24,340 bases of DNA, taken from contig JBGTGT010000066.1 in the NCBI GenBank assembly GCA_041746575.1, positions 1 to 24,340 on the forward strand, written 5' to 3'. The translations under genes and the position numbers were made by a program. The notes beneath the pieces were generated by a model. It made no database searches, had not been told where the DNA came from, and saw nothing but the letters and a program-made list of their open reading frames with translations. Source of the DNA: Microcystaceae cyanobacterium (GTDB lineage Bacteria > Cyanobacteriota > Cyanobacteriia > Cyanobacteriales > Microcystaceae). This document shows positions 1-24,340 of the stretch, in pieces (positions within the stretch are counted from its first letter, which is position 1; each line of letters opens with the position of its first letter).

Positions 1-43
1 TTCCTACTAATACTATATTAATATCAGATTTTGTAAATAAAAG

Positions 44-75
44 ATACCAGATAGTTAAATTATACTATCTGGTAT
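44..75 (-). terminator. Intrinsic terminator after the IS110 recombinase gene
   Basis: 12-bp perfect inverted repeat ATACCAGATAGT (44-55) / ACTATCTGGTAT (64-75), followed on the minus strand by CTTTTATTT, just past the stop at 82. Confidence 0.7.
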
Positions 76-81
76 TTAATG

Positions 82-1527
82 TTAAGGTTTTTTCTGCATT
101 AATAAATCGGGGTTGATTTCTTTACCTTGCCAGATAACCAGTAAGATTTTCCAGAGAATTTTAATTGCTTTATCAATGGCTCTGCTGGCTAAATATTCTT
201 TAAGCTTTGCCTGAGTTTTAGAAGCTTTAAGTGCTTTTGAAGGTTTGCGCTTTGCTTGGATGGCATCGGTGATAATTTCCTTAAAAAAGCGATTTTGAGG
301 TTTGTCATCGACAATTTCGTCAATCTTGCTTAATATTGCATCATCCATTGCCATTAAGCTTTTAAGTTGTGCGTAGGCCGGATCAGCTTCCTTCCAGTAA
401 GATTCAGTAATAAGCTTTAATACTGCTGATTTTCTCAAAATTCCTTTACTGCCTACTTTTTCCCTGATTATCTTACTTATTCCCCATTGCATTAGAGTTA
501 ATTTGATTTCCTTATTTCCTCTAACTACTTTGATGGTTGTTTGTCCTGAAGATTCCTCAAATAATCCTCGTCCCATCAGGCAATGAAAATGGCGGTAACC
601 GATTCTTTTTGTAACGGGGTTTCCTTTTTTGGTCTTCTTTCGTTTAAAGATTGAGCGTTTTTCTTTTAAATCTGGTGTTAAAAATTGTTCAAAAGGGTAA
701 ATCTGACATAATGTGATTACTCGATCATAGACCCCAAATTGTAACCAATCGAAACCTTGATTGTATTTATCAAATTTCTTTATTTTGATGATTTCTTGCA
801 AGCATTGACGAATTCTGGCTCGTTCTCGTTGCATATCGTCTATCGTTCGGGCTAAGATAATTAATTCCTCGCTAAATTTCTCTGTTCTTTTATAACTTCC
901 GATATCTTCGGTTAATCGGGTTTTGTATCGGTTTTTTGTGTCTCGTCCGGCGATCCATGTCCATAGAGGCGTTATTCTGTATTCTCCACAAAAATCAATT
1001 TTTCTTAGGCAGGGTGCTTCTGTTTTTAATAAGTTTTTGGCGTGGTTAACCAGTTGTCTTATTCTTCTATTGATTCTTTCCTTTTGTAAAAACAGTTGAT
1101 AGGCGGTTTCTAGTTCAGGAATTCTGACACGGTTATAGTAGCCTAAGTCTTGGTCAAGTTCCCGTCTCCAACCGTCATAAGCGATGGCTACTGCATCATG
1201 TTCATCATCGGACATATCCCAGCCACAATTCTTTCTGATAGCGATAATCATGTTATTTTTAATGATTCTGACTTCTTTTCCTGCTCGTCTGAGTTCATCT
1301 TCGATATTCTTAGAATATCTTCCTGTTGGTTCGAAGCAGTAGATATCGCCGAGATGGATCAATAGTTCCATACTGCTTTTAGTATCTTTGATATCATGGA
1401 AGTCACAGATATCGAAAAAGTCTTTAGCCTTGCTGGTGGGGTATTTGTTATAATCTTCGTGAGTCAGTCGCACGGCAACAGATCGGTCTTCGCTCACGTC
1501 GATTCCGATGATAATGGGTTTATTCAT
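82..1527 (-). CDS. IS110-family DEDD recombinase/transposase (bridge recombinase), 481 aa
   Basis: RuvC-like DEDD motifs GID10VS, FE66PTG and D108EHD111A; coiled-coil middle; C-terminal GLFEESS327G matching the IS110 catalytic-serine loop, followed by GN. Confidence 0.88.
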   Translation of the reverse strand: MNKPIIIGIDVSEDRSVAVRLTHEDYNKYPTSKAKDFFDICDFHDIKDTKSSMELLIHLGDIYCFEPTGRYSKNIEDELRRAGKEVRIIKNNMIIAIRKNCGWDMSDDEHDAVAIAYDGWRRELDQDLGYYNRVRIPELETAYQLFLQKERINRRIRQLVNHAKNLLKTEAPCLRKIDFCGEYRITPLWTWIAGRDTKNRYKTRLTEDIGSYKRTEKFSEELIILARTIDDMQRERARIRQCLQEIIKIKKFDKYNQGFDWLQFGVYDRVITLCQIYPFEQFLTPDLKEKRSIFKRKKTKKGNPVTKRIGYRHFHCLMGRGLFEESSGQTTIKVVRGNKEIKLTLMQWGISKIIREKVGSKGILRKSAVLKLITESYWKEADPAYAQLKSLMAMDDAILSKIDEIVDDKPQNRFFKEIITDAIQAKRKPSKALKASKTQAKLKEYLASRAIDKAIKILWKILLVIWQGKEINPDLLMQKKP

Positions 1528-1554
1528 AGTAAAAACGGTCTAAGTGGGTGGATA

Positions 1555-1848
1555 AAGCTTGATTCGTCTGTGAATGACCAAAGACTGCGTTAAGCGTCTG
1601 ATTCCTACTTAAGACTCTCTATCAAGCTTGAGGGAAAACCCTCGTGAGACTGTGGCTAAACAGTCCCAAGAGGTAACCGACCTTAAGTGAGTTAACTGTT
1701 GGGAGTGTTTAAAAGTGAGAAGTTAAGCGTCTGTGAAAGGACTAAGACTCCTTAAAAAGCGTCTGTTTCATTTAAAAGACTCCTTAACTTCTCGGTGTTT
1801 GTTGGTCATTTAGCCATGACTGTGGGATGTGGGATAGAAGCCTATCCC
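1555..1848 (-). ncRNA. Putative bridge RNA: target-binding loop (1717-1793) and donor-binding loop (1555-1629) plus accessory hairpins
   Basis: Four CGTCTG-N10-AAGACT units. Closing stems are AAGCTTGAT/ATCAAGCTT (9 bp) and GAGAAGTTAAG/CTTAACTTCTC (11 bp). The variable 10-mers match the element ends and the host flank. Strand and RNA ends are inferred, not observed. Confidence 0.85.
1565..1781 (+). repeat. Four CGTCTG-N10-AAGACT units (1565-1586, 1595-1616, 1728-1749, 1760-1781)
   Basis: Read directly; the 10-mers are TGAATGACCA, ATTCCTACTT, TGAAAGGACT and TTTCATTTAA. Confidence 0.97.
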
Positions 1849-1887
1849 CTTAGTCTCTCAATTCAATTGAGTTAAGAGACTAAGGGG
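1846..1887. repeat. 13-bp perfect inverted repeat (hairpin) upstream of the guide loops
   Basis: CCCCTTAGTCTCT (1846-1858) / AGAGACTAAGGGG (1875-1887). Could be a 5' stem of the RNA or a processing/termination site. Confidence 0.8.
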
Positions 1888-2019
1888 GTGGGTTTCATTT
1901 GTTGAGATAAAGTATTGTATTGCCATAGCTCCTAAGATACAGATTAATCCTGTAGAGATAAGTGCTTTGAGTGCTTCTAAATTCGTGTTAATCTCCTTTA
2001 GTAATTCAAGTTCTGTCAT
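1858..2019 (-). CDS. Small putative membrane protein, 53 aa (MTELELLKEINTNLEALKALISTGLICILGAMAIQYFIS...)
   Basis: Manual translation; starts 5 nt after the upstream RHH gene stop; one hydrophobic segment; 3' end overlaps the 1846-1887 hairpin. Confidence 0.5.
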   Translation of the reverse strand: MTELELLKEINTNLEALKALISTGLICILGAMAIQYFISTNETHPLSLLTQLN

Positions 2020-2024
2020 AATTT

Positions 2025-2171
2025 CTAGATATTGGGTAATGATTTAATCCAGTTACGGATTAAATCGGATTTGGTGATCCTACAGATTTGAGCATAGCGA
2101 TTAAGTTTGGCCTCCTGTTCGGGGCTGATCCTCGCTCGTAACCAAGTGTTAAAGGTTTTGTCTTCAGTCAT
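2025..2171 (-). CDS. Ribbon-helix-helix (CopG-like) DNA-binding protein, 48 aa
   Basis: Manual translation MTEDKTFNTWLRARISPEQEAKLNRYAQICRITKSDLIRNWIKSLPNI: alternating beta strand, helix, then the TKSDLIR motif typical of RHH proteins. Confidence 0.75.
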   Translation of the reverse strand: MTEDKTFNTWLRARISPEQEAKLNRYAQICRITKSDLIRNWIKSLPNI

Positions 2172-2223
2172 CTGTAGTCATCTGTTAATATGAGGGCGTT
2201 TTTGTAATTTAATTCGGTTCAAT

Positions 2224-2260
2224 ATAGGGGGCGATCTATTTGGAGTAGATCGCCCCCTAT
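2224..2260. repeat. 15-bp perfect GC-rich inverted repeat (candidate packaging/origin hairpin or operator)
   Basis: ATAGGGGGCGATCTA (2224-2238) / TAGATCGCCCCCTAT (2246-2260) with a 7-nt loop; function inferred only. Confidence 0.7.
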
Positions 2261-2310
2261 TTGATGTGAATAGCCTTATCGCTTTTTATTTTTTCTTGTA
2301 GAATAAGGTC

Positions 2311-2338
2311 ATCATACACAAAAAAAAAAAACAGTCAA
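2311..2338 (-). promoter_or_regulatory. Sigma70-type promoter for the leftward operon, with a homopolymer spacer
   Basis: Minus strand TTGACT (2338-2333), 16 nt, TATGAT (2316-2311); the spacer contains a 12-nt T run (A run 2320-2331 on +). Confidence 0.6.
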
Positions 2339-2379
2339 TATTCTTTCAATTTTTTACATAGTGTTAAGGATGGTTAGGT

Positions 2380-2718
2380 ATGCTAAAGAAAGAAGGTAGG
2401 GGGCGACCAAAAGGATCTTTATCGAGCAGAGTAGGCAAGACTCAAGCTAGTATAAGCATGTCCGCTGAGGCGTGGGCGATTCTCACTAAGCGAGCTAAGG
2501 ATTTAGGCGTTTATAAGAGTGATTATATTGAAAATTTGGTGCGTCGTGGCGATAATGTTACTTACGATTTATCTATTTCTTTTCTAATTGAGATGGTAGT
2601 GAATTTGGAAAAGGATATTATTTCTTTAGAATTGACGAAAGTGGAATTACAAGAAAAAGCAGCAGATATCCGTAAATTTTTGCGAGAAATAGGCGTAAGT
2701 CCTAATATAATGCCTTAA
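2380..2718 (+). CDS. Putative RHH-type regulator with a GRPKG N-terminal arm and C-terminal coiled coil
   Basis: GRGRPKG, then ASISMSAEAWAILTKRAKDLGVYKSDYIENLVR (RHH pattern), then heptad-spaced leucines. Confidence 0.65.
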   Translation: MLKKEGRGRPKGSLSSRVGKTQASISMSAEAWAILTKRAKDLGVYKSDYIENLVRRGDNVTYDLSISFLIEMVVNLEKDIISLELTKVELQEKAADIRKFLREIGVSPNIMP

Positions 2719-3017
2719 ATTATGAAGGAGGCGTGAGATTGATAGCTAGGACGGTGTATTTAGCGTTTTTTCTTGGGAGATTAGTAAAAACAGTCAGCTA
2801 TCAGTCTCCGTCTCCCCCTCACAAAAGGCGTAAAGGGGGCTTTATGCGAGGAACGAGCTTATCCCCGTTGCTTTATAGATAAATCTCATTGGTAAAGATT
2901 TGTAATTGTATCCCTCAGTGATTTTCCCCTTATTTTTATCAATTACTATCGGGTATTTTAAAACTAACAGCAGGTTAAATGATCACCTAGTTGGTTAACA
3001 ATAGCTAAAAATGCTTT

Positions 3018-4004
3018 ATGTCTATCTCCTGTCGCTTTGATTACCTTCAAGGTACGTTTTACTTTAGCGAGCTTGACTTTTTCTCTCGATTGCTTGATAA
3101 ATTATCAGGGCTGTTGTTTCCGGTCGTGGATCAATGGTTTTGGCTAGATCATGGGATGTTTAGCGGTGAGTTTTTCTCTCGTGCGTTTACCTCTTTAAGT
3201 GGCTTTCGGGGTGGCATACGATGGGATAGAGATCAAGGCAAATATCGGGGAATTTTATTTATTTCTGGGCAATTTTTAGAATGCTTAGATGCATCTTTAC
3301 AGCGTCGTCTTGTTTGCGCATTAAAGCGATTACAATTTCGGTTTACTCGTGTTGATGTTTGTCTTGACGATTGGAATAGGCGTATTCAGTTTGAATGGGT
3401 TAAAAAGGCAGGTGATAAGGGACTGTATCGCTATTTTCAACACTTTGATTATCGGGCTTCTTGCTTGAGTAAGACAGATCAAATTGTGCCTACTTGTGTG
3501 TTTGGTGCTGATCTTTCCGATAAAAAATTGAGATTTTATAATGCTGAGGCTGTTCATGGCTTTTTAGCGGATCGGTGGGAGCTTCAACTCCGGCGTGATT
3601 ATGCCCAAAAAGTGATTGATGATTATTTAAGTTTAGGGGCTTCGGTTCTTCCAGCGTTTGTCGTTGGAGCAATTGATTTTGTAGAGTTCAAAGTTAAGCT
3701 AACCCGTGATTATTGTCGAGTTGCTTGGTGGCAATCGTTGATAGATGCTGTTGATTTTGAACCCAGACGAATATCTGTCAAGCCGTCTGTGCCGAATATA
3801 GATCGGGTTTTAGTTTGGCTTCAGAAACAAGTTGCTCCTAGTCTAGCGGTTCTTCATGAGGGTATGGAGTCCGAAACGTTTGAAGCTTACGTTCGGTTCT
3901 TAGTTGAAGATGGCATTTGTCGTTTTCAGGATAAGCATTCTGCTTTAATTACTCGTCTTCAATCTGTTGACGATTCAGATTTATTAAATGAAGGAGAAAG
4001 TTAA
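3018..4004 (+). CDS. Rolling-circle replication initiator, Rep_trans family
   Basis: Motifs FTRVDVCLDD, TCVFG...S.KKLRFYN (catalytic Tyr), RWELQLR and WLQKQVAPSL. Confidence 0.88.
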   Translation: MSISCRFDYLQGTFYFSELDFFSRLLDKLSGLLFPVVDQWFWLDHGMFSGEFFSRAFTSLSGFRGGIRWDRDQGKYRGILFISGQFLECLDASLQRRLVCALKRLQFRFTRVDVCLDDWNRRIQFEWVKKAGDKGLYRYFQHFDYRASCLSKTDQIVPTCVFGADLSDKKLRFYNAEAVHGFLADRWELQLRRDYAQKVIDDYLSLGASVLPAFVVGAIDFVEFKVKLTRDYCRVAWWQSLIDAVDFEPRRISVKPSVPNIDRVLVWLQKQVAPSLAVLHEGMESETFEAYVRFLVEDGICRFQDKHSALITRLQSVDDSDLLNEGES

Positions 4005-4610
4005 ATGTCTCAAATTGTTTTTTGTGTAGAACATCAAAATTATACTCGTAAAAATGGGGATGAAGTTGACAATTACATTTGTCATTATTTTGATCCTTCA
4101 GAATTTGAAAATTCGGCGTTATATAAAGGGGTTCAGCTGTTGAATAAAGTTTCTTCTTTAGGCTTTGAGAATTTTCCCCATGTTCCCGGTGTTTATGAAA
4201 TGTCTTCTCGGCCTTTAAAGCGGTTTGGTAATTTTGTTTCTTCTCTTAAAAGTTTGCGTTTTTTGAAGTCTGTTGATTCAATTGTCCCTAAAGGAGAATA
4301 CTTTATTGTTTTTGGGGTAAGGGTTGTTTGTAATTATAAGCCTCTTAATTCTACTCAAGTTTTAAATGGGGTCAAATTTTTTGCGATTGATCCGACGGGT
4401 TCTGATAATTTAGATATTAAAGGTTATCCTGTTTTTGAGCAATTTATTTCGGGATTAACGCTTGATAGTTTTCCAAAAATTCCTGCTTATTATGATTTTC
4501 AGTTTAAAGAAAAGCGGGGTAAAAATGGCGAAGCTATTTTAGAGGTAGTTAGTGTTCAGTATGTTGAGTCCTTTTTTAATTCAGAAAGTCTTAGTCAGGA
4601 AGGTGAATGA
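4005..4610 (+). CDS. Putative ssDNA-binding protein (pV-like) made of two tandem homologous domains
   Basis: Directly follows rep. An internal repeat IVF.V..NY...N...DP...KG...FP..P..Y occurs twice; beta-rich and aromatic. Function inferred from position. Confidence 0.6.
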   Translation: MSQIVFCVEHQNYTRKNGDEVDNYICHYFDPSEFENSALYKGVQLLNKVSSLGFENFPHVPGVYEMSSRPLKRFGNFVSSLKSLRFLKSVDSIVPKGEYFIVFGVRVVCNYKPLNSTQVLNGVKFFAIDPTGSDNLDIKGYPVFEQFISGLTLDSFPKIPAYYDFQFKEKRGKNGEAILEVVSVQYVESFFNSESLSQEGE

Positions 4611-4738
4611 TGATCACTGATGATCAAGCGATTCAATTTATCATCTTTCTCTGTCAGTCTATTAGAGATTGTTTGATGTTAATTTACTTTGTAGCTACTG
4701 GCATTAAAATCATGAATTTTTTCCTAATAGGATTGTAA
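4607..4738 (+). CDS. Small hydrophobic protein, 43 aa (minor virion protein candidate)
   Basis: Manual translation MMITDDQAIQFIIFLCQSIRDCLMLIYFVATGIKIMNFFLIGL; ATGA overlap with the upstream stop. Confidence 0.65.
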   Translation: MMITDDQAIQFIIFLCQSIRDCLMLIYFVATGIKIMNFFLIGL

Positions 4739-4741
4739 ATA

Positions 4742-5011
4742 ATGTGCTTATCTTTTTCCCTTACTCTTACAGGTTGTAAATCTCGTGATCTTGATGTTTT
4801 AAAATCTGTAATTTCTCAGATTTCTACTCAATTAGAGATTAGTAAGCCAGAATTTTCTATTACACAATGTAATATTGATTTTTGTTGGGATATTAATATG
4901 AATAATTTATTTCATATTTTTGTTTCTTCATCGACAGAAATCATTTTCACAATTTTATTATGGCTAGTTTTCCATTTATTTTATTCAGCGATTCCAAGTC
5001 AGTCTAAATAG
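4742..5011 (+). CDS. Small phage protein with a C-terminal TM segment
   Basis: ORF track; IIFTILLWLVFHLFY hydrophobic stretch; start uncertain (alternative ATG at 4898). Confidence 0.55.
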   Translation: MCLSFSLTLTGCKSRDLDVLKSVISQISTQLEISKPEFSITQCNIDFCWDINMNNLFHIFVSSSTEIIFTILLWLVFHLFYSAIPSQSK

Positions 5012-5019
5012 GAAGAAAA

Positions 5020-5193
5020 ATGTTTTTATTTAAAATGATGATTGCCTATTCTAAGGCTAAATTCTTAGGAATTCCGTTACCTTTTTTCCCAATTTTATTA
5101 TTGGTCGCGTTTATTATTACTTGGGAGATTGTTAAGCGAAGACCAACCAAAAGGAGAAAAAATGCTCGCCGTAAAGTACCTCGCCGAAATTAA
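5020..5193 (+). CDS. Small TM protein with an Arg/Lys-rich tail, 57 aa
   Basis: Manual translation MFLFKMMIAYSKAKFLGIPLPFFPILLLVAFIITWEIVKRRPTKRRKNARRKVPRRN. Confidence 0.6.
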   Translation: MFLFKMMIAYSKAKFLGIPLPFFPILLLVAFIITWEIVKRRPTKRRKNARRKVPRRN

Positions 5194-5329
5194 ATTTAGT
5201 GAAATTCAATTAGATCCTCCCAAAGAATTTGTAGATTCTAATTTTATCGCTCACATTCAGCCTCATTTTGTTACTTTCTTATTCGCTTTAGCCTCAATTG
5301 CTATTTTCAGAAAACTTACAGGTATTTGA
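5162..5329 (+). CDS. Small virion-like protein, 55 aa, C-terminal TM and basic end
   Basis: AGGAG RBS before ATG 5162; ends ...FVTFLFALASIAIFRKLTGI. Confidence 0.7.
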   Translation: MLAVKYLAEIKFSEIQLDPPKEFVDSNFIAHIQPHFVTFLFALASIAIFRKLTGI

Positions 5330-5331
5330 TC

Positions 5332-5550
5332 ATGAATTCTTGCTATTTAATTGATGATTCTTGCCAGTGTGGTAAAAATTTATCTGGTTCCAATCCTTGT
5401 TTTGATATTGGCGGCGGCAATATTAGCGGTGGCCAGTTTGGCGATCAGGCCGTTGGAGCTTTTGGCGGTTTTTTAGGCTCTAATCCGGGGCTGGTTGGTG
5501 CTTTGGGGTTATCGTTGGGTGTTGGATTTTTGATGAGGGCTTTTAAATGA
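5332..5550 (+). CDS. Small Cys/Gly-rich virion-like protein with C-terminal TM
   Basis: MNSCYLIDDSCQCG...C; Gly-rich; ends GLSLGVGFLMRAFK. Confidence 0.7.
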   Translation: MNSCYLIDDSCQCGKNLSGSNPCFDIGGGNISGGQFGDQAVGAFGGFLGSNPGLVGALGLSLGVGFLMRAFK

Positions 5551-5714
5551 TTTTCTATTTTCTTCAATCCGATTCTACCGCCAAAGCTTTAGAGGATATC
5601 CAGTCAATGCCTCAATTCTTTGCTGATGCGATCAACTGGGGAATTGATGCTAGTTACGTGGCTGTTGGTTTTATGGCTTTGCTCGCTCTTGGTGTTTCAA
5701 TGTTTAAAAGGTGA
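5547..5714 (+). CDS. Coat-like small protein, 55 aa
   Basis: Manual translation MIFYFLQSDSTAKALEDIQSMPQFFADAINWGIDASYVAVGFMALLALGVSMFKR: acidic/amphipathic N-part, TM, basic end; ATGA overlap. Confidence 0.7.
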   Translation: MIFYFLQSDSTAKALEDIQSMPQFFADAINWGIDASYVAVGFMALLALGVSMFKR

Positions 5715-5719
5715 GAAAA

Positions 5720-5854
5720 ATGGTTCCTAAAAAATTAGAAAAAACAACTGATTATTTGGATTTAACTTTGATTGTATGGATGATAGCTACTCAATTAATT
5801 ATTACCTATACTTTGTCAAAAATATTGATTATTTTGTCAATTTCTCCACACTAA
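5720..5854 (+). CDS. Small hydrophobic protein, 44 aa
   Basis: Manual translation MVPKKLEKTTDYLDLTLIVWMIATQLIITYTLSKILIILSISPH; AGGTGA RBS-like sequence upstream. Confidence 0.6.
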   Translation: MVPKKLEKTTDYLDLTLIVWMIATQLIITYTLSKILIILSISPH

Positions 5855-5930
5855 AGGCTTGTCCGGACAAGGGTTTTTTGAGTTCCTAAAACTCAGCTGT
5901 ACTTACCACTTACTTTTTGAGGTGAAACTA

Positions 5931-6179
5931 ATGAAATCAATGAATTTTTCGCAAAAAATGGTCTTAGGATCTGCTACTGCTATCCTTGTAGTCCTTGGAT
6001 CTGCTGGCGTGGCGGGTGCTTGGGGTAAATCAGATTATGATCAAGAACTTGAAAAAGTTGGCGCATTTTCTGATGCAATTGGTGCTATTGTAGCGTCAAT
6101 GACTACAATTGCTATTACGCCTATTGGTATCGGTGCGGCTGTCAAAACGTTTCGCCATATCGTTCTTAATAACGTTTAA
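5931..6179 (+). CDS. Major coat protein candidate (pVIII-like) with signal peptide
   Basis: GAGGTG RBS; 30-aa leader ending AGA; 52-aa mature part with acidic N-terminus, Ala/Ile/Gly-rich helix and basic KTFRH; followed by a terminator as in Ff phages. Confidence 0.75.
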   Translation: MKSMNFSQKMVLGSATAILVVLGSAGVAGAWGKSDYDQELEKVGAFSDAIGAIVASMTTIAITPIGIGAAVKTFRHIVLNNV

Positions 6180-6186
6180 TTTTTAG

Positions 6187-6208
6187 GGGGGGAATATCCC
6201 CCCATTTT
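6187..6208 (+). terminator. Terminator-like hairpin after the coat gene
   Basis: GGGGGGA-ATA-TCCCCCC followed by ATTTT. Confidence 0.55.
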
Positions 6209-6211
6209 CTC

Positions 6212-6571
6212 ATGAAAAAGTTATTTTCTCGTTTTTTAGCTGGATTAAAATATGGTTTTTTAGGGATATTTATCTTTTTTATTCTTTTTAAACCTGTATA
6301 TGCTCAAGATTTACAAGTCGATGTAGAAATTGGCCCTCGTTTTGATCCTGATGATCAGTATGTTATTACGAGTTGTATGAGCGAGAACTGGGATAATATT
6401 TTTCCTCTAAATTTCGTCTCTGAATACGAACCTCAGCCTATTTCTGCTGATTGCCCTAAGTTAGAAATTTTTAATAATAATTATGAGGCTTGTTACTTAA
6501 TAGATATTTACGAAATAATTGAACCGGCTATTTTATTGGGACTTTTTACTTATGCTATTATCCATCTTTGA
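6212..6571 (+). CDS. Short pIII-like protein (signal peptide, Cys-containing ectodomain, C-terminal anchor)
   Basis: Leader ending VYA; acidic region with 3 Cys; C-terminal ILLGLFTYAIIHL; lies between coat and pVI-like genes. Confidence 0.55.
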   Translation: MKKLFSRFLAGLKYGFLGIFIFFILFKPVYAQDLQVDVEIGPRFDPDDQYVITSCMSENWDNIFPLNFVSEYEPQPISADCPKLEIFNNNYEACYLIDIYEIIEPAILLGLFTYAIIHL

Positions 6572-6821
6572 TTTTTTTTCCTACTATTTTCTACAAGAAC
6601 AAATGCCTGCTTATGGTGAATGGGCCTGTAATTTATCGTCTCGGTGGGCTTTTCAATTATTTCCCTCTACTCACACAATTAAGAGTTTATCAGATCAATT
6701 ATCTGGCAATATTCCTTTTTTGGGTGATTATCTAATTTTTAAGATGATCAATAATATTTGGGATCTACTTTGGTGCGTTGCTACTTATAAAGTTATTAAA
6801 ATTATGCCGGGCAAATTCTAA
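6552..6821 (+). CDS. pVI-like minor virion protein
   Basis: Hydrophobic ~89 aa ending WCVATYKVIKIMPGKF; upstream of the ATPase; ATG 6552 preferred over TTG 6519. Confidence 0.6.
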   Translation: MLLSIFDFFSYYFLQEQMPAYGEWACNLSSRWAFQLFPSTHTIKSLSDQLSGNIPFLGDYLIFKMINNIWDLLWCVATYKVIKIMPGKF

Positions 6822-6991
6822 TGTGGCGATATTTTCTCTTAGTGGGTTTAGGCTTTTTATTAAATTTTTGTACGATGCAACCTAAAGTTATGGTTAAGTG
6901 TGCTGTCAATAAAGGTAAAAATTATCCAATTTATTATTATTATTCTCACTCTAAATGTGTAGAAATTGAGAAAATTTTAAAAGGAGAGTAA
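6821..6991 (+). CDS. Small membrane/lipoprotein-like protein, 56 aa
   Basis: Manual translation MWRYFLLVGLGFLLNFCTMQPKVMVKCAVNKGKNYPIYYYYSHSKCVEIEKILKGE; TAATG coupling to the upstream gene. Confidence 0.6.
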   Translation: MWRYFLLVGLGFLLNFCTMQPKVMVKCAVNKGKNYPIYYYYSHSKCVEIEKILKGE

Positions 6992-6997
6992 AAAGTA

Positions 6998-7822
6998 ATG
7001 GGCGTTTTTATTCAGGGCATAAATGGCATAATTGGTGAACAAGGATCAGGAAAAGGTTTTGCTATGTTGAAAATTGGTCTTTTGTATGCTAATCAAATTC
7101 AATATGATCTTTGTTTTAATTTTGAAATTGATGAAAAGGCTTTGTATAATTATTGTTTGGAAATGGGATATACATGGCTATTAAGCAGAATACTACATAA
7201 TAAAATAAGAGTAAAGAATAGTAAGGATTTAATTAGTTTTATGGATCTGCCTAAGACGATTTATATATTAGATGAAGCCGGTGTTTATCTTAATTCAAGG
7301 CGTTTTCGTGATATTGATCCTGACTTTTTACATGAAATCGCACAAGTAAGGCATGATTGTAAATTGCTTTGGTGGGTCGCACAATATCCTGAAATGGTTG
7401 ATAAAATGCTAAGGAGCCTTACCGCTTCTTTTATCCAAGTTGATGGCAAACAAAGATTTAATAAAAAATTAGGAAATTCTGAATTAATTTGGCAGCGTAT
7501 TTATTTATTTAATGCTCGAAATTTTAATATTTATTTATCTAAGGTTCATGATAAATTTACAGGAATTAAATACTGGTTGAATGCTCGTAGATTGGCTGAT
7601 TTTCACTGGGAAGGGGTTCTCGATTATTCTGATAAAATGATTTTTGATATTTATCAGAGTTTTGGTTACAGAGTGGGTGATTCAGTTGTGAAACAAATTA
7701 AAAAACATAAGCACAATTCAAAATTAATTTATGTTAATTATCCTTCTAAAATTCTGGAAGAATCTAATGATCAAGAGAATTCTATTATTCCTATTAAGCT
7801 CGACGTTTCTCACTTATTTTAA
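6998..7822 (+). CDS. Zot/pI-like morphogenesis ATPase
   Basis: Walker A GEQGSGKG, Walker B IYILDEAG, RH...AQ....DKMLR motif; AGGAG RBS. Confidence 0.9.
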   Translation: MGVFIQGINGIIGEQGSGKGFAMLKIGLLYANQIQYDLCFNFEIDEKALYNYCLEMGYTWLLSRILHNKIRVKNSKDLISFMDLPKTIYILDEAGVYLNSRRFRDIDPDFLHEIAQVRHDCKLLWWVAQYPEMVDKMLRSLTASFIQVDGKQRFNKKLGNSELIWQRIYLFNARNFNIYLSKVHDKFTGIKYWLNARRLADFHWEGVLDYSDKMIFDIYQSFGYRVGDSVVKQIKKHKHNSKLIYVNYPSKILEESNDQENSIIPIKLDVSHLF

Positions 7823-8360
7823 TGGTTTAAAGGCTTATGCTTATGCTTATCCTAATCCTAATCAGTTTTTTGTAGAGGGATTTAATTCTGCTGGATCTGT
7901 AAATTCTTTTCTGCAAAAATGGGAAAATTATATTAACGGATTTCCTAAAGATCCTAATAAGTTTCCCTGTAACTGTAATCCTGTTTTATTTGCTAGATTT
8001 TGGAACTATTACGATCATCCAGATTATTCAGCGTGGGATCATTATGGTAAAGAAGAGGGGAATTCAGATACGGCTACTTTTCGCAACGGAGGTTCGTGTA
8101 AATGGAAAGTTGCTATTAACGAGTTTAACTCTTCGATACTTTCTTCAGAGTTTAGTGCTTTGGTTGCTGCTTATAGCAAGTCGTATCATTATTTTTCAGC
8201 ATCCTTTAATTACAATGTTCCCGGCGGTATTTATGAGGGCGATCTTGAAAAATGTCGTTCTAACGCTCCACCGTTTTCACCTAATGATCCGGGCAGTTGT
8301 CCACGGGTAAATGTTCGGAGTCTTCCAGTTGTTCGTGTGCGTGTTACTTGTACTCAATAA
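7767..8360 (+). CDS. Secreted Cys-containing hypothetical phage protein
   Basis: MIKRILLFLLSS...AYAYA signal peptide; 6 Cys; rich in Asn, Tyr and Trp. Confidence 0.65.
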   Translation: MIKRILLFLLSSTFLTYFNGLKAYAYAYPNPNQFFVEGFNSAGSVNSFLQKWENYINGFPKDPNKFPCNCNPVLFARFWNYYDHPDYSAWDHYGKEEGNSDTATFRNGGSCKWKVAINEFNSSILSSEFSALVAAYSKSYHYFSASFNYNVPGGIYEGDLEKCRSNAPPFSPNDPGSCPRVNVRSLPVVRVRVTCTQ

Positions 8361-8372
8361 AGAGGTTTTATT

Positions 8373-8825
8373 ATGAGGGGTTTTACGTTAGTTGAGACTA
8401 TGGTGGCGGTTTTAATCGCTGGTGTTTTGGCGACGATTGCTGTTCCTCAGTTACAGGGAATTGTCAAGGCGCAATCTGAGGGATATGAGATTGAGCAGAT
8501 TCAAGATTTTATTAAGATAGCTCAAAGGAATGCAATCCGGCGTTCACAAGGCTGTCAGGTTGATTTCGTTGTGTCTGGTCAAAAGGTTTCGGGGCTTGGG
8601 TCTAACTGTGATGGGGTCACTCAGCAATTAAGGATTGAGCAAGATATTAATTATGTTGGTAGTCAAGTTATAGATTTTAATTTCCGTGGTTATGTGGTTA
8701 GTTCTGCTGGAGCTCTTAGCCGTGATTTTGAAACTTTATTTTTCTCTAAGAGTTATTGTGTTGTTGTGGGTACTAATATCGGTTTGATCCGCAAGGGGGT
8801 TTATTCTGGATTTTGCAAGATTTAG
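8373..8825 (+). CDS. Type IV pilin/pseudopilin-like protein (FimT/GspH-like)
   Basis: Prepilin cleavage/methylation motif MRG|FTLVE followed by a hydrophobic helix to AVP; AQRNAIRR motif; 4 Cys; GAGG RBS. Confidence 0.88.
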   Translation: MRGFTLVETMVAVLIAGVLATIAVPQLQGIVKAQSEGYEIEQIQDFIKIAQRNAIRRSQGCQVDFVVSGQKVSGLGSNCDGVTQQLRIEQDINYVGSQVIDFNFRGYVVSSAGALSRDFETLFFSKSYCVVVGTNIGLIRKGVYSGFCKI

Positions 8826-8881
8826 TATAAGTTAACTATTTATTTGTCTTACTTAAGTCGGTAAGTTGTCTTACTCTTGGG

Positions 8882-9238
8882 TCATTCGTTTAAATACCAA
8901 AGCACAAAAACTGCCAACAAGACAACAGTAAAAACGACAGTAGTTGTTACCAAACTAACGCCAAAACCGTCTACCAATTGATCCGTAATTAATGTACCAA
9001 CAATACTTATTAAAATAACCACCAGCCAGTAACTTAAGGGGACATACCGTTTAAGTCTAAACTGATTGAAAAGAGCCATCAGTAGCAAACCCCCCATGAG
9101 ATAGGATGTAATGCCTAAACCAAGATTCATTGTAAAGGCCAAAAAATCAGCCCCTGTTTCACCTACCGTGGTGGCTAGAACTTTAATAATCCAGAAATAA
9201 AATGTTACGTCTGGAACCCTATTTAACATTTTCCTCAT
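8882..9238 (-). pseudogene. 5' half of a DUF347/COG4705 membrane protein gene, truncated by the prophage
   Basis: MLNRVPDVTFYFWIIKVLATTVGETGADFL signature; ends abruptly at WYLNE with a stop supplied by element sequence. From memory of the family, it normally continues E[K/R]TLS and is about twice as long. Confidence 0.85.
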
Positions 9239-9323
9239 GATATTTTTCCTTAGTCCTATCATTGATGACTTCATCATCAAAGGAAAAAATCAAGAACTTA
9301 AAAAGATCTGGCTCTTAAAATAG

Positions 9324-9403
9324 GGCGTTGCTGAATAAGAGGGGGATCATGACCCTCAAAGCCAGTAAACTCGTACAAAAACCACTCCAAAATCAGCGAC
9401 GCT
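9324..9403. repeat. Possible ~80-bp MITE-like element
   Basis: Imperfect terminal inverted repeats GCGTTGCTGA (9325-9334) / TCAGCGACGC (9393-9402). Confidence 0.4.
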
Positions 9404-9675
9404 TAATGGTAGGGGTGCGTATATTTGCGCCAACAAATAGGTTACATTAGTTTGCAATTCGCGAGGCTCATCTTTCAGAACCTTAAAGGGCTAAAAATCT
9501 TGCTGTCAGAGGTTCTTAGCGTAGTTGTCGTTTCCCCTGTAAACTGAGTTAAGTCATCCTTTAAAGGGAAAAAGATAGGTTTTAGGTTTTCAGTTTGGGG
9601 CAATCGGCTTAAAACCTTACACCTGCTCCTCCTAACCTATCGCTTACACCTTGTCAAATCCGTTTTTTTAAGTTA

Positions 9676-10161
9676 TTAACGTAAACGAATGACTAATCTT
9701 CGGTCGGGTTCATGTCCTCGGCTTTCGGTCTCTAAGTCCGTTGCATCTTTGAGAAAAGTATGGATTTGACGACGTTCTGCCGAAGAGAGGGATTTCATTT
9801 CTACCGCCTGCCCCGTCTGACGCACTTGCTCAGCGACTTGTTCAGCTAAGGTCTTTAATTCCAGTTGTCGTTTCAGGCGATATCCCACTAATTCGATGGT
9901 GAACGCTTGTTGGTCTTCGTATTCAATATTGAGATTGACCAACGTATTCGCTAAATACTGAATCGCATCCAGACTTTCCCCGTGAACGCCTAATAAAATA
10001 TTAAGCTGTTCAGGACTAAGATTTGCTTCATTGATGACTAACCAGATAGCGTTATTGGTTTCATCCATTGCATCTCGTTCAACACTAACGGTTGTTTTGA
10101 TTCCCATCAACTCTAATAGAGTTTCTAACCATTCTTTCCCTCTGGTCATTTGTTGGTTCAT
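9676..10161 (-). CDS. jag: Jag/KhpB (EloR) family RNA-binding protein (KH + R3H)
   Basis: LLGVHGESLDAIQYL KH motif; ERRQIH R3H motif; downstream of yidC. Confidence 0.92.
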   Translation of the reverse strand: MNQQMTRGKEWLETLLELMGIKTTVSVERDAMDETNNAIWLVINEANLSPEQLNILLGVHGESLDAIQYLANTLVNLNIEYEDQQAFTIELVGYRLKRQLELKTLAEQVAEQVRQTGQAVEMKSLSSAERRQIHTFLKDATDLETESRGHEPDRRLVIRLR

Positions 10162-10218
10162 TGTTACTTCACTGAATCCTTACGCTAACGGTCAGACAAC
10201 ATACGTTATATTTTAAAG

Positions 10219-11364
10219 CTAAGAAGTTTTCTCTTTCTTCTTATTTCGCTTTTCAAAAGGCAGGGTTTCCCGTCCTTTTTCGGTTTTTTCCTGTTCTTCT
10301 ACTAACTTTTGCAGATTTTCAGGGAGAGGTTCCCGCATTAAAATCACAGTTTGCAGGGTTTGGAAAATGTTTGCCACCACAATGTACATCAAAACCCCTG
10401 CCGGAAGGGGGAAAAAGAGGAACATAGACGTAAAAAGAAGAGGAGTGAGCTTATTGACCATCTGTTGCTGTTGTGCACCAGAACCCCCTGCTCCTTTGGC
10501 ACCGGATAATTCTTGGTTAAGATAAACGCTCAAGCCAAAAAATAAGACCATGCCCAAGATATCCCAGTTAATTTTACCGTTTTCGCCAACGACGCCGACT
10601 TGACCTAAGGCTTCAATAAATAAAAACCCTGAATCGGCCGCAATTCCCGGAATCGTCCCTTGAATGGTCGCTTCCCCCGGTGTTAAGGCTTCAACTGTAC
10701 CGTCGGAGTTGACTTGAATGCGTTCTTCCCCTTTTGTTACCTTCCATCGAGGTTGAATATCCTTTTGAGAGAATTCTGTCGCCAATTGGCTTAAGGTTTT
10801 TCCTTCGGGGGTTTGAAAATCAATTTGCGCTTTTTCTCCCACACCCAATTTATTTCCACTCGGCAGTAAAGCACTAACGGGATAGTGAACCCCATCTTCA
10901 ATGTAGATATTTTGTGGTTTTGTCACGAAAGGTTGCGGAATAACCCGCTCCATCTGTTCGGCAGGAATGACCTGTACATCTACCGTATAGTTAATATTTG
11001 AAAAAGGTGAGCCGCGTAGCGTGGCAAAAAGAGCGAATAAAATAGGCATTTGCACCAATAGAGGCAAGCATCCCGCCAAAGGGTTGCCAAATTCCTGCAT
11101 TAGCTTAGCCATTTCTTCTTGCTGTTTCGTTGGGTCGTTTTTATGGCGTTTTTGAATTTCCTCTTGTCTTTCTTTCATGAGAGGTTGCGTAATCCGCATT
11201 TTGCGCATATTGCGAATTTGCCCCGCACTGAGAGGATACAAGGCAAAGCGAATTACGAGGGTTAAGGCAATGATGGCAAAGCCATAACTCGGCACAATCC
11301 CGTAGAAAAAGTCAAGGATTGGCAACATGATATTTGTGGAAATAAATCCAACTCCAAAGTCCAT
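10219..11364 (-). CDS. yidC: Membrane protein insertase YidC/Alb3
   Basis: [46 protein letters not shown]; conserved operon. Confidence 0.97.
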
Positions 11365-11439
11365 TCGTCTAAGTCCAATTATCCCTTTATTAATTTATCC
11401 ATTAAATGTTGGAAGGTTAACCACCGTCAAATGCAGTTG

Positions 11440-11832
11440 TTACCCCTTAATTGCTTCCAACGGCCGTCCTGTTTTTGCCGCCGCACGTTCGGCAATATAA
11501 TCAGAGATTTCCCGAAAGCGAGGTATTGCCCGCAGTTCTAAGCGACTCCCATCTTTGAGGGTGACGACAATATCTCCCCAGAGACCAATCCCTCTGGAAA
11601 TTTTGACAATCTTAACAATCTCAGGGTAAATGATGTCGGTGCGATCGCGACCCATCCAGCCCCCTGTCACAGAGATACGACGGTCGGTAATGCGATAACG
11701 CAACCACAGCGCACGAACCACTGCCCCAACGGTCAAGGGTAAACAAATAACGGTAAACCCCAGTAATATATTGACAATTAAGTCACCGATATGGGGGCCG
11801 CCTTCATAATAGGTTTCTTCTCGAATGCCCAT
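11440..11832 (-). CDS. Bacterial PH-domain membrane protein
   Basis: LRYRITDRRISVTGG motif; usual position between rnpA and yidC in cyanobacteria. Confidence 0.88.
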   Translation of the reverse strand: MGIREETYYEGGPHIGDLIVNILLGFTVICLPLTVGAVVRALWLRYRITDRRISVTGGWMGRDRTDIIYPEIVKIVKISRGIGLWGDIVVTLKDGSRLELRAIPRFREISDYIAERAAAKTGRPLEAIKG

Positions 11833-12184
11833 GAATGATCTCAGCTTGAATGAACAACTGCTTTAATTCTCGCAAAAAATGTTCATAATTGCACTCTAAA
11901 CTTTGGCGACGGACGATGATTACCATTTTCCAACTAGCGGTAATTTGAGGTAACAATGTCCGAATAACTGCCCGAATCTGTCTTTTTAGACGATTACGAG
12001 TGACAGCTTGCTTACTCACTTTACGACTAATAGTAATACCAAAGCGAGAAGCCGGATGGTCTTCTTTAAGGCTGACAGCCAGAACTTTGAGGACAAAATG
12101 GGAGCTTTTATAAGTCTTGCCCTGCTTATAGACTTGCTGAAAGTCTTTGTGGTGTCTAAGTCGATGAATTTGGGGTAATCCCAC
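11804..12184 (-). CDS. rnpA: Ribonuclease P protein component
   Basis: RFGITISRKVSKQAVTRNRLKR (RNR motif). Confidence 0.97.
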   Translation of the reverse strand: MGLPQIHRLRHHKDFQQVYKQGKTYKSSHFVLKVLAVSLKEDHPASRFGITISRKVSKQAVTRNRLKRQIRAVIRTLLPQITASWKMVIIVRRQSLECNYEHFLRELKQLFIQAEIIHGHSRRNLL

Positions 12185-16127: not shown

Positions 16128-16396
16128 GGGATGGTTTGGTTGAAAGGATGTTGGATAGACACGCTTTCGGGGAATTCAATCTTCAAAAATTTCCCCATCA
16201 TCCCCATTCATCCCTTAAGTAGCCAATTGCAAGTTAATATCATACACCTTTGGGCGCAAAATAGGCACCCCTACCATCAATCATGTATCTCATCAAGTCG
16301 CAAAACGCTGTATTTTCCTACTTTTATGAAACGGATGCACCAAAGTAAAGAGATATCGGTAAAAAAAGATGAGCAGTTGACTGTTAACTAAACCTT

Positions 16397-23782: not shown

Positions 23783-24241
23783 ATGGACAAAGATGTTTCT
23801 TATCCTGATTATCTTTGGTGGGTTATTCCCAAAAAATTAGCAGGAATGCCTCGTCCTCCCCTTGACGATTTACCTCAACTTTATCAAGCAGGATTAAGAG
23901 GAATTGTCTCAGTTATGGATGAATCTTCTTTAATTCAAGAATATCAAAAAATGAAATTTGAGGCTCTTTCTTTACCCATTTTAGAAGACCTTGCTCCGAC
24001 GATTCCACAAGTCTTAAAATTTGTTCAGTTCGCTGATATGATAATGTCTCAGAATCAAGCAGTTGCTGTTCATTGTACAGGGGGAAATCATCGTACTGGA
24101 ACATTACTTGCTTCTTATTTTGTGGCTAAAAAAGAAAATCCAGACTTGAGCATTCAACGAATTCAGCAGATTCATCCGACCGCACGGTTATCTAAACCTC
24201 CAGGGCTATTTCATTCTAAAAAGTACCAAAATCTGCTTTAG
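23783..24241 (+). CDS. Dual-specificity/protein-tyrosine phosphatase, C-terminus replaced by IS sequence
   Basis: LWWVIPKKLAGMPRP; HCTGGNHRTG (CX5R); residues encoded after 24200 are read from the IS end. Confidence 0.85.
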   Translation: MDKDVSYPDYLWWVIPKKLAGMPRPPLDDLPQLYQAGLRGIVSVMDESSLIQEYQKMKFEALSLPILEDLAPTIPQVLKFVQFADMIMSQNQAVAVHCTGGNHRTGTLLASYFVAKKENPDLSIQRIQQIHPTARLSKPPGLFHSKKYQNLL

Positions 24242-24340
24242 TCCATAACTGCATAATCGTTGTGCTTGCGCCATATTCGTAAAACCCGCTTCTCGGTACA
24301 GATTAATGGCTAAATCCCTTGTAATTGCCCATAGATTCGG
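24201..24340 (-). mobile_element. End of an ISAs1-family insertion sequence (partial transposase 24206-24340)
   Basis: Minus frame PNLWAITRDLAINLYREAGFTNMAQAQRLCSYGLKQILVLFRMK* resembles cyanobacterial ISAs1 C-termini; CAGGGC terminus at 24201 directly beyond the stop codon. Confidence 0.75.

Follow-up and report, generated by a model that had tools for sequence, protein, structure and literature searches.

Bridge recombinases are, to our knowledge, the only systems in which a single protein acts on two DNA partners that are both specified by RNA. The search for them has until now relied mostly on the Pfam architecture of the IS110 family. In the IS621/IS110 group, a variable first loop of the bridge RNA reads the target and a conserved second loop reads the joined ends of the element, the guide on the 5' side having the sense of the top strand and that on the 3' side being complementary to it, according to the accessible text of the published description (PMC11208160). 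Here we describe a comparable system in a 24,340-nucleotide (nt) stretch of DNA from a Microcystaceae cyanobacterium (assembly GCA_041746575.1), called the window below. An inserted element of 8,884 bp carries at one end the gene of a 481-amino-acid (aa) recombinase, P0001, and, directly upstream of that gene, which lies on the minus strand, a region of four CGTCTG-N10-AAGACT units. It is highly likely that these units form a bridge RNA serving the IS110-type recombinase of what appears to be an inovirus-like prophage.

Inoviruses of the CTX-phi type integrate site-specifically at dif by means of the XerCD tyrosine recombinases of the host, whereas the element in the window has its own recombinase and a site specified by a predicted RNA. 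Filamentous phages with an IS110-family transposase at the provirus end have been described in Neisseria (Nf/MDA, of which Nf targets the dRS3 repeat; PMC7058167) and in Thermus (Zuza8, Zuza27 and phiOH16; PMC11437467), and in both cases the IS110-family gene is thought to be responsible for integration and excision (PMC7058167, PMC11437467). The element resembles them as a putative inovirus-type provirus of about 8 kb in which a replication gene lies towards the end opposite to an IS110-family gene. The accessible parts of these reports mention no guide RNA and have the transposases annotated as IS110, whereas P0001 escapes Pfam. "Expanded" IS110 loci, in which a recombinase and a bridge RNA are accompanied by many kilobases of cargo, have also been reported (bioRxiv 10.64898/2026.08.14.744561); the cargo described there consists of resistance, metal and plasmid-like genes, and inovirus, filamentous and prophage are absent from the main text in its accessible form.

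Several features are common to the window and IS621 (structures 8WT6 and 8WT9), as far as the accessible descriptions of IS621 extend. In both, the RNA, which is predicted in the window, is encoded on the 5' side of the recombinase and comprises two stem-loops interrupted by internal loops, the core is contained in all four pairings and duplicated at both junctions, the sense of the guide on each side is identical, and the protein has the fold with DEDD residues, which in the window is a modelled one with a candidate catalytic serine. The differences are as clear. The core is a dinucleotide in IS621 and has 3 nt here (GAA; TAA or AAT in relatives), and the internal loops, of 8-9 and 4-7 nt in IS621, are symmetric here (10 + 10 nt) with identical clamps. 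The RNA in the window also has a structured linker of 87 nt, and P0001 is half as long again as the IS621 protein, with a helical tail of about 130 aa, and falls below the Pfam thresholds. Compact IS110 elements comprise about 1.2-1.6 kb with recombinase and RNA only; the element in the window adds about 7 kb of phage-like cargo. A study that mined bridge RNAs selected its loci by a Pfam architecture that P0001 fails (bioRxiv 10.64898/2026.10.21.760802). In a literature search with most subscription journals outside its coverage, we found no report that connects phage integration with a bridge RNA, and none that deals with an inovirus of cyanobacteria; in the accessible main text of Roux et al. 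2019, the word cyanobacteria is absent. Very probably, the system in the window belongs to the IS110 bridge-recombinase group, and its phage-borne, highly divergent form is new.

Element ends and their relation to the four guides

The window is the whole of contig C66, one of 134 contigs in the 4.2-Mb assembly (G000), and this contig is also present in four hot-spring metagenome runs and in no RNA run listed. A neighbouring contig with psbU marks the assembly as cyanobacterial. Base 1 of the window is the first base of the contig. Because contigs C123 (1-141) and C120 (1-141) share bases 1-141 and part exactly to the left of base 1, position 1 is a genuine assembly fork and not an artefact of the contig start.

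The opposite end lies in a host gene for a DUF347 membrane protein. Two DUF347 repeats each are found in the open reading frame (ORF) 8885-9280 on the minus strand and in the first ORF of C123, and in four relatives the gene is whole, with a single open frame of about 260 aa that spans both halves. Compared with residues 136-260 of the protein of one of these relatives (G007), the C123 half shows 83% identity, and the same response-regulator gene comes next after the C-terminal half in C123 and in G007 alike. When 1-8884 was excised in silico, the sequence ...WYLNE-KTLAMHSINT was restored in frame across the GAA codon, as in the relatives. The insertion therefore comprises 1-8884 and is bordered on either side by TTC, which reads GAA on the gene strand; TTC occurs at both 1-3 and 8885-8887 and singly in the restored gene, which makes the core repeat 3 nt and not 2. 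A contig from run X4 tracks the window up to 8887 and then continues into unrelated sequence that is absent from G000, and together with the split gene this settles the end at 8887. Both ends and the 3-bp TTC core are thus as the preliminary description, made from the window alone, had proposed. Run X4 contains the same element in another context, with zero differences over 1-3478; its depth there is about 7-8 over the phage and about 3 over the DUF347 flank. Neither a joint of base 1 with base 8884 nor an empty DUF347 site was present in the assembled contigs, from which rare forms could escape.

The four CGTCTG-N10-AAGACT units lie at 1565-1586, 1595-1616, 1728-1749 and 1760-1781 (plus-strand coordinates), and a fifth is absent from either strand of the whole 4.2-Mb assembly. 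They form two modules of two units each, closed by stems of 9 bp (1555-1563/1621-1629) and 11 bp (1717-1727/1783-1793). Read on the gene strand, each module has a closing stem, an outer clamp GUCU/AGAC, an internal loop of 10 + 10 nt and an inner hairpin AGAC/GUCU, and every guide consists of six specific nt, the 3-nt core and one further nt. The modules, and their order on the minus strand, with the variable target loop first and the conserved donor loop second as in IS621, agree with the preliminary description, and all the guide matches to ends and flank that it had listed were present on recheck. Thus TGGTCATTCA (the reverse complement of 1571-1580) matches GGTCATTC at 8880-8887, ATTCCTACTT at 1601-1610 matches A8884 followed by 1-8, and TTTCATTTAA at 1766-1775 matches 8885-8893 with one mismatch.

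Expressed through the two donor guides (D1, D2) and the two target guides (T1, T2), D1 (AAGTAGGAAT) fits the terminus of the right end (RE) plus the core at 9 of 10 positions, and the left junction at 8879-8893 reads as T1(1-6), core and the reverse complement of D2 at 13 of 15 positions, where the mismatch to T1 would form a G-U pair. The C123 flank beyond the core fits T2 at 4/6. At the distal left end of the window element, T1 and D2 each fit 5/6. The corresponding values are 5/6 and 4/6 at L066, a metagenome locus with a recombinase at one end that is 36% identical to that of the window.

The integration module of the prophage at 1-8887 very probably consists of a very divergent IS110-family bridge recombinase and its bridge RNA. 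In the target loop, T1 (UUAAAUGAAA) would have the sense of the left target and core and so pair with the bottom strand, and T2 (AGUCCUUUCA) would be complementary to the core and right target on the top strand. The donor loop would read the joined phage ends, D1 (AAGUAGGAAU) corresponding to the right end plus core and D2 (UGGUCAUUCA) to the core plus left end. Strand exchange by the recombinase would take place at the GAA/TTC core and involve the chromosome and a circular form of the phage, which we propose by analogy; the outcome would be a TTC-flanked prophage such as the one observed.

The relation between guides and junctions was also examined in relatives, where 18 loci holding the right end gave 14 distinct junctions. 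D1 matched the right end at 8/8 positions in 12 junctions and at 7/8 in the other two. T2 agreed with the 6 nt after the core at a mean of 4.14 positions, compared with 1.73 across 180 mismatched pairs; the individual scores were 6, 6, 5 (six times), 4, 3 (three times), 2 and 1. None of 20,000 permutations reached the observed sum for D1 or that for T2. At L066, T2 predicts the flank at 6/6, positions 2-9 of D1 are identical to the terminal 8 nt of the right end, and a left-junction match of 12/15 stands directly after the last cargo ORF. Homologous guides therefore follow their elements, D1 tracking the right end and T2 the right flank, and a lack of such tracking, which the preliminary description had named as speaking against its proposal, was not seen. 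The coordinates of the features are collected in Table 1.

Table 1. Features of the element and its immediate surroundings in the window
Feature	Position	Strand	Remarks
TTC core copy, right-end (RE) junction	1-3		host DNA (C123 or C120) to the left; TTC again at 8885-8887
Right end (RE) of element	4-81	-	terminus ...TTAGTAG on gene strand, read by donor guide D1
481-aa recombinase P0001	82-1527	-	DEDD RuvC-like N-terminal part and Ser327-Gly328 motif
Putative donor-binding loop module	1555-1629	-	closing stem recovered by folding
D2 (RDG)	reverse complement of 1571-1580	-	donor module
D1 (LDG)	reverse complement of 1601-1610	-	donor module
Structured linker	1630-1716	-	three hairpins; fold of 1630-1707 z -2.87, 1/200 shuffles as good
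Putative target-binding loop module	1717-1793	-	with closing stem
T2 (RTG)	reverse complement of 1734-1743	-	target module
T1 (LTG)	reverse complement of 1766-1775	-	target module
Internal left-end-like site LE', TGGTCATTTA	1803-1812	+	complementary to D2 9/10; core TTT (AAA on gene strand)
Imperfect palindrome, 81 bp	1837-1917		100% identical to C90:32880-32960
Cargo block	2380-8825	+	every ORF opposite in strand to recombinase
Regulator-like ORF	2380-2718	+	cargo
Rep_trans rolling-circle initiator	3018-4004	+	E 1.2e-15, 58 bits vs cut-off 29.6
ORF after Rep	4005-4610	+	cargo
P-loop Zot-like ORF	6998-7822	+	PHROG Zot-like E 2.7e-4
Prepilin-type ORF	8373-8825	+	N_methyl E 8e-6
Left-end terminus (LE'')	8879-8884	+	GGGTCA (TGACCC on gene strand); D2 reads 5/6 positions
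Second TTC core copy	8885-8887		GAA (Glu) codon of disrupted host gene
DUF347 host gene, N-terminal half	8885-9280	-	cut by insertion; C-terminal half at C123:154-546

The recombinase and its predicted RNA in relatives

Direct sequence comparison does not by itself place P0001 in IS110. The protein had no significant Pfam match (DEDD_Tnp_IS110 at E 0.53), and a PDB sequence search reached IS621 only at E 1.3; Transposase_20 was not matched, and S327-G328 sits in a stretch of the structural model with a predicted local distance difference test score (pLDDT) below 50. The AlphaFold model of the whole protein had a pLDDT of 78.5. A Foldseek search of the PDB with this model gave IS621 or ISCro4 chains exclusively among its ten best matches (E 1.7e-5 to 1.3e-4), with alignment over the full length and TM-scores of 0.47-0.58, normalised by target length; ISCro4 (PDB 9T56) shares 12-13% identity with P0001 in the structural alignment. 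The next matches were Nop56/58-type and RuvC/RuvX folds. A profile of six family members retrieved 401 representative clusters at E <= 0.001 among 1.84 billion proteins. DEDD_Tnp_IS110 was found at E <= 0.01 in 45 of the 48 relatives scanned, in 24 of them above the curated Pfam cut-off, and Transposase_20 at the same E value in 16, six being above cut-off. E66-P-T-G, D107, D108, D111 and S327-G328 are invariant in the family alignment of six sequences, and by analogy the DEDD residues and Ser327 would be the catalytic ones. By its modelled fold and by transitive homology, P0001 appears as a deep branch of the IS110 superfamily that lies below the Pfam threshold, and the IS110-type recombinase of the preliminary description is upheld as a structural homologue of IS621 and ISCro4.

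Fifty related loci were fetched, and both RNA modules were found in 26 of them, from Crocosphaera/Cyanothece and from metagenomes. They gave 21 distinct sequences, all of 159 nt, which contain 18 distinct T1, 20 distinct T2, seven D1 and four D2 guides. The mean column identity was 0.56 in the specific 6-mers of T1 and T2 and 0.92 elsewhere, and the core columns were invariant or nearly so. The proposed structure pairs 92.3% of the cells, compared with 37-53% when the partners are slid, and the G-U pairs 15-62, 36-41 and 90-137 are compatible with an RNA of the gene strand and not with its complement. The clamps change in a compensatory manner: in the 3' (donor) module of the Crocosphaera type, the inner stem AGAC/GUCU has become AGCC/GGCU, and in the 3' module of L066 the outer clamp GUCU/AGAC has become GUUU/AAAC. 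These changes support the earlier proposal that GTCT/AGAC pairing places the guides on opposite sides of an internal loop.

A covariance model (R1) built from the 21 Crocosphaera-type RNAs found L066 (51.9 bits, E 5e-9), the locus of a paralogue on contig C26 of the same genome (24.7 bits, E 0.003) and the target loop of the window at 1691-1794 (21.9 bits, E 0.014). The core differs by group: Crocosphaera-type RNAs have TAA, the RNA at C26 has AAT, and the window and L066 share GAA; the linker is missing from the Crocosphaera-type and L066 RNAs. Folding of single modules gave the expected shape for both modules of L066 and both of another locus, L010 (z -4.77 and -6.13). In the window, the minimum free energy (MFE) fold of the target module comprises the closing stem, outer clamp, internal loop and inner hairpin (z -3.75).

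The predicted structure is not favoured throughout. The donor module of the window folds no better than shuffles (z -1.58), and in its MFE fold the closing stem alone is recovered and the inner part departs from the model. Stem covariation within the Crocosphaera set is likewise not above shuffles, a statistic that is uninformative in this set because the stems hardly vary. A scan of the window against Rfam 15 at E <= 1 returned only two chance microRNA matches, in a release that may or may not include a bridge-RNA family, and a scan of 1400-2400 for sigma-70-like promoters gave 2 sites against 2.0 expected. By analogy with IS621, an RNA of about 1555-1793 would be transcribed from the minus strand and bound by the recombinase.

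Constant hexamers at regular spacing, adjoining a replication and integration module, could also be double-stranded DNA sites, such as iterons or the arm-type sites of a phage protein, with no RNA involved. In that case there would be no call for variable 10-mers that track the ends and flanks, for constant parts that change while preserving their pairing, for G-U pairs specific to one strand, or for a partner protein with the fold of an RNA-guided bridge recombinase, and we consider this explanation extremely unlikely. Two other candidates were rejected. A CRISPR-like array was dismissed on the grounds that there are four units only, that cas genes are absent and that the clamps are paired. 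A guide made of folded single-stranded DNA, located on the virion strand, was dropped because the G-U pairs fit the gene strand only.

Two paralogues of P0001 occur in the same genome. The first, at 2048-3448 of contig C26 (locus L006), has 466 aa and 34% identity, and is accompanied by its own two-loop RNA at 1863-2018 with the guides AAGTAAAATG, ACTGCCATTA, ATGTATAAAA and TGGGTAATTA and the core AAT. The right end of this element lies about 50 nt upstream of infC; in the search for its left junction only chance-level matches of 13/15 appeared, and the left end was not found. The second, of 415 aa, lies at 2443-3690 on the minus strand of contig C90 (locus L007), has 25% identity and matches DEDD_Tnp_IS110 with 30.9 bits. 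R1 gave no match at C90, nor at the Pseudanabaena-type loci L025, L026 and L028-L030, and any guide RNA at loci of these two kinds is of another type.

Second copy, internal site and imperfect targets

Several observations limit or complicate the reading of a whole prophage placed through all four guides. One group concerns the ends in relatives. The right end was picked as the motif match nearest D1, which favours D1; the picked ends have a constant offset of 1395-1396 nt, coinciding with the divergence of the copies in alignment A3, where the Crocosphaera-type right end is the point at which 13 copies lose their likeness. A search for the distal left end of Crocosphaera-type elements covered 3.7-10 kb upstream, and 19.7 kb in the record of Crocosphaera watsonii WH 8501, and did not find it; the end tests for T1 and D2 are therefore limited to the window and L066. 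In the WH 8501 record (locus L045, 606000-625999), three DDE transposase genes lie within 9 kb upstream of the copy, and the element there is probably broken up.

At another locus, L063, a right end at 3040-3060 continues directly into TACCCA, which is the left end that the donor guide of the family predicts. In L070 (94-831) and L071 (615-1898), homologues of its genes at 3070-6601 stand 8-9 kb upstream of the recombinase. On this sequence evidence, L063 looks like a joined-ends form, circular or tandem, which would imply elements of more than 12 kb. The cargo proximal to the left end of such elements is, on ORF reading, unlike the inovirus-like genes of the window. The DNA beside the L063 right end had no match in WH 8501.

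A second group concerns an additional copy of part of the element. Logan unitigs from three runs have depths of 52.7, 26 and 63.9 over 1-1866, about 1.3-1.8 times the rest of the window (35.8, 20.3 and 42.7 over 1888-12000), and the two unitigs flanking the left side are of equal depth (29.4/29.5 in X1 and 36.9/33.7 in X3). Because of this excess and the two equal-depth left contexts, the recombinase and RNA module is present in two copies and the cargo in one. The second copy departs from the window sequence inside the 81-bp palindrome, and its continuation past the palindrome was not found. The palindrome lies upstream of an IS110-like recombinase gene at both of its places, with unrelated flanks, and its gene-strand sequence includes AAATGAAA, identical to 8 nt of T1 with the core among them. 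In the C120 context the right end lies 112 nt upstream of psbU. A search for the other side of C120 through synteny around psbU found the synteny not conserved, and the candidate end C54 enters another repeat; for the X4 flank, which G000 lacks, no tie to the psbU region was found.

Third, the site LE' lies between the target module and the palindrome, and the specific nt of D2 fit it at 6/6, compared with 5/6 at the true end. L066 has its analogous word at about 9717-9725, upstream of the target loop by about 85 nt. In the Crocosphaera type, a 5-mer complementary to D2 stands 25-29 nt after the donor loop (e.g., L020:688-697), and D2 and this 5-mer (TACCC, TGCCC or TAGCC) covary in 19 of 20 distinct sequences. 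These D2-complementary words could be relic left ends, alternative donor sites or left ends, or RNA anti-guides.

The mobile unit might accordingly be a canonical IS110-type insertion sequence of 1.8 kb (1-1810), sitting at the edge of a prophage that was integrated otherwise, with the match at 8879-8893 due to chance. The better fit of D2 to LE', its counterpart in L066, and the raised depth of 1-1866 with its two left contexts would all suit such a unit, as would the abundance of TGGTCATTC-like 9-mers in the window (15 with at most one mismatch, e.g., at 9687, 10143, 16889 and 20889, compared with 4.9 +/- 2.0 in shuffles). This excess may come from start-codon contexts (GAATGACC), and because of it single matches of 8-9 nt are weak alone. 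However, it is 1-8884 that splits the host gene exactly, with TTC on both sides, and the X4 contig ceases to match at 8887; no unitig branches at 1810 in the three runs, where one unitig spans 1-1866. The core at LE' is AAA and not GAA, whereas the 13/15 match at 8879-8893 is a composite of left target, core and left end. In addition, no integrase or transposase family was matched among the cargo ORFs scanned, and L066 has a like layout from end to end. A separate 1.8-kb insertion sequence is therefore quite unlikely, and the whole element 1-8884 remains our preferred mobile unit.

The last group concerns the target. The target loop fits the occupied site at 12/15, and eleven unoccupied sites in the genome fit it at 13-14/15. 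Past the right end in C120, the flank agrees with T2 at 1/6, and beside the left end in X4 the flank agrees with T1 at 1/6; among the junctions of relatives, T2 fits at 3/6 or less in 5 of 14. The RNA-guided system could thus be real and yet this copy, like those at the C120 and X4 sites, have been placed by donor-only ("half-match") or relaxed recognition, or its loop could have drifted after insertion. On the other hand, a fit of 5/6 plus core for the left target and 4/6 plus core for the right target at one site exceeds chance, and at least 4/6 fit in 9 of 14 relatives' junctions. We regard half-match placement or later drift as less likely than not. The preliminary description, which gave about 14-15 bp recognised per substrate, needs correction at the target, where the actual site is fitted at 12/15 and the two other flanks are unmatched. 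In a 2026 preprint, IS621 is reported to show half-match recombination and single-stranded circles; both may be relevant to the flanks without a match and to a phage that would be single-stranded.

Phage-like cargo and biological meaning

The cargo is a run of co-oriented ORFs. The Zot-like ORF also matches a PHROG "head morphogenesis" family (E 1.1e-4) and has no Pfam match, its P-loop being judged by eye; a run of small ORFs is hydrophobic and membrane-protein-like, likewise as judged by eye. Homologues of four of the eight cargo proteins compared are found at L066, in the same order and on the strand opposite to the recombinase, namely the regulator (46% identity), Rep (41%), the next ORF (28%) and the Zot-like protein (26%). 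A tblastn search of 50,697 deposited phage records with the Rep protein and the recombinase, the sole two queries, gave no match, and no relatives were found among the IMG/VR viral contigs. From these sequence features we assign 1-8887, with moderate confidence, to an inovirus-like prophage. The preliminary description had called the system a programmable RNA-guided recombinase; this is supported, with the element being not a plain insertion sequence but such a prophage, and the system not a separate new kind but a divergent member of the IS110 bridge-recombinase kind.

Elsewhere in the genome, contig C89 (11563-12931) has a second pair of Rep and adjacent ORF, 31% and 41% identical to 3018-4610 of the window, which suggests another inovirus-like element in G000. 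Beyond the element, the window contains a dispersed repeat of about 90 bp (16220-16317) that matches more than 25 contigs at 80-95% identity, and its right end (24200-24340) enters a multi-copy repeat common to contigs C98, C4, C2, C95 and C134.

The locus points to a clade that Pfam filtering has missed and whose predicted RNA is very regular, with symmetric loops of 10 + 10 nt, identical clamps and a core of 3 nt. Because of this regular architecture, reprogramming should be easy. A further reading, which we offer tentatively as a possibility, is that of a cyanobacterial lineage of filamentous-type phages whose integration specificity is encoded in RNA, with the D2-complementary site serving either as an anti-guide or as an additional left end inside the element. 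If so, both attP and attB would be read by the bridge RNA, and copies otherwise almost alike would be distinguished mainly by about 2 x 6 guide letters, each copy landing at a different site. The D2-complementary site might then gate the donor, deciding between a circle of the whole phage and one of the recombinase only, or might have to do with a single-stranded circle as substrate. If the recombinase is the integrase of the phage, the choice of lysogeny site would be encoded in RNA, and the wide spread of target guides among the Crocosphaera copies would be a natural record of retargeting. This also suggests a possible way in which the filamentous phages of Neisseria and Thermus choose their sites.

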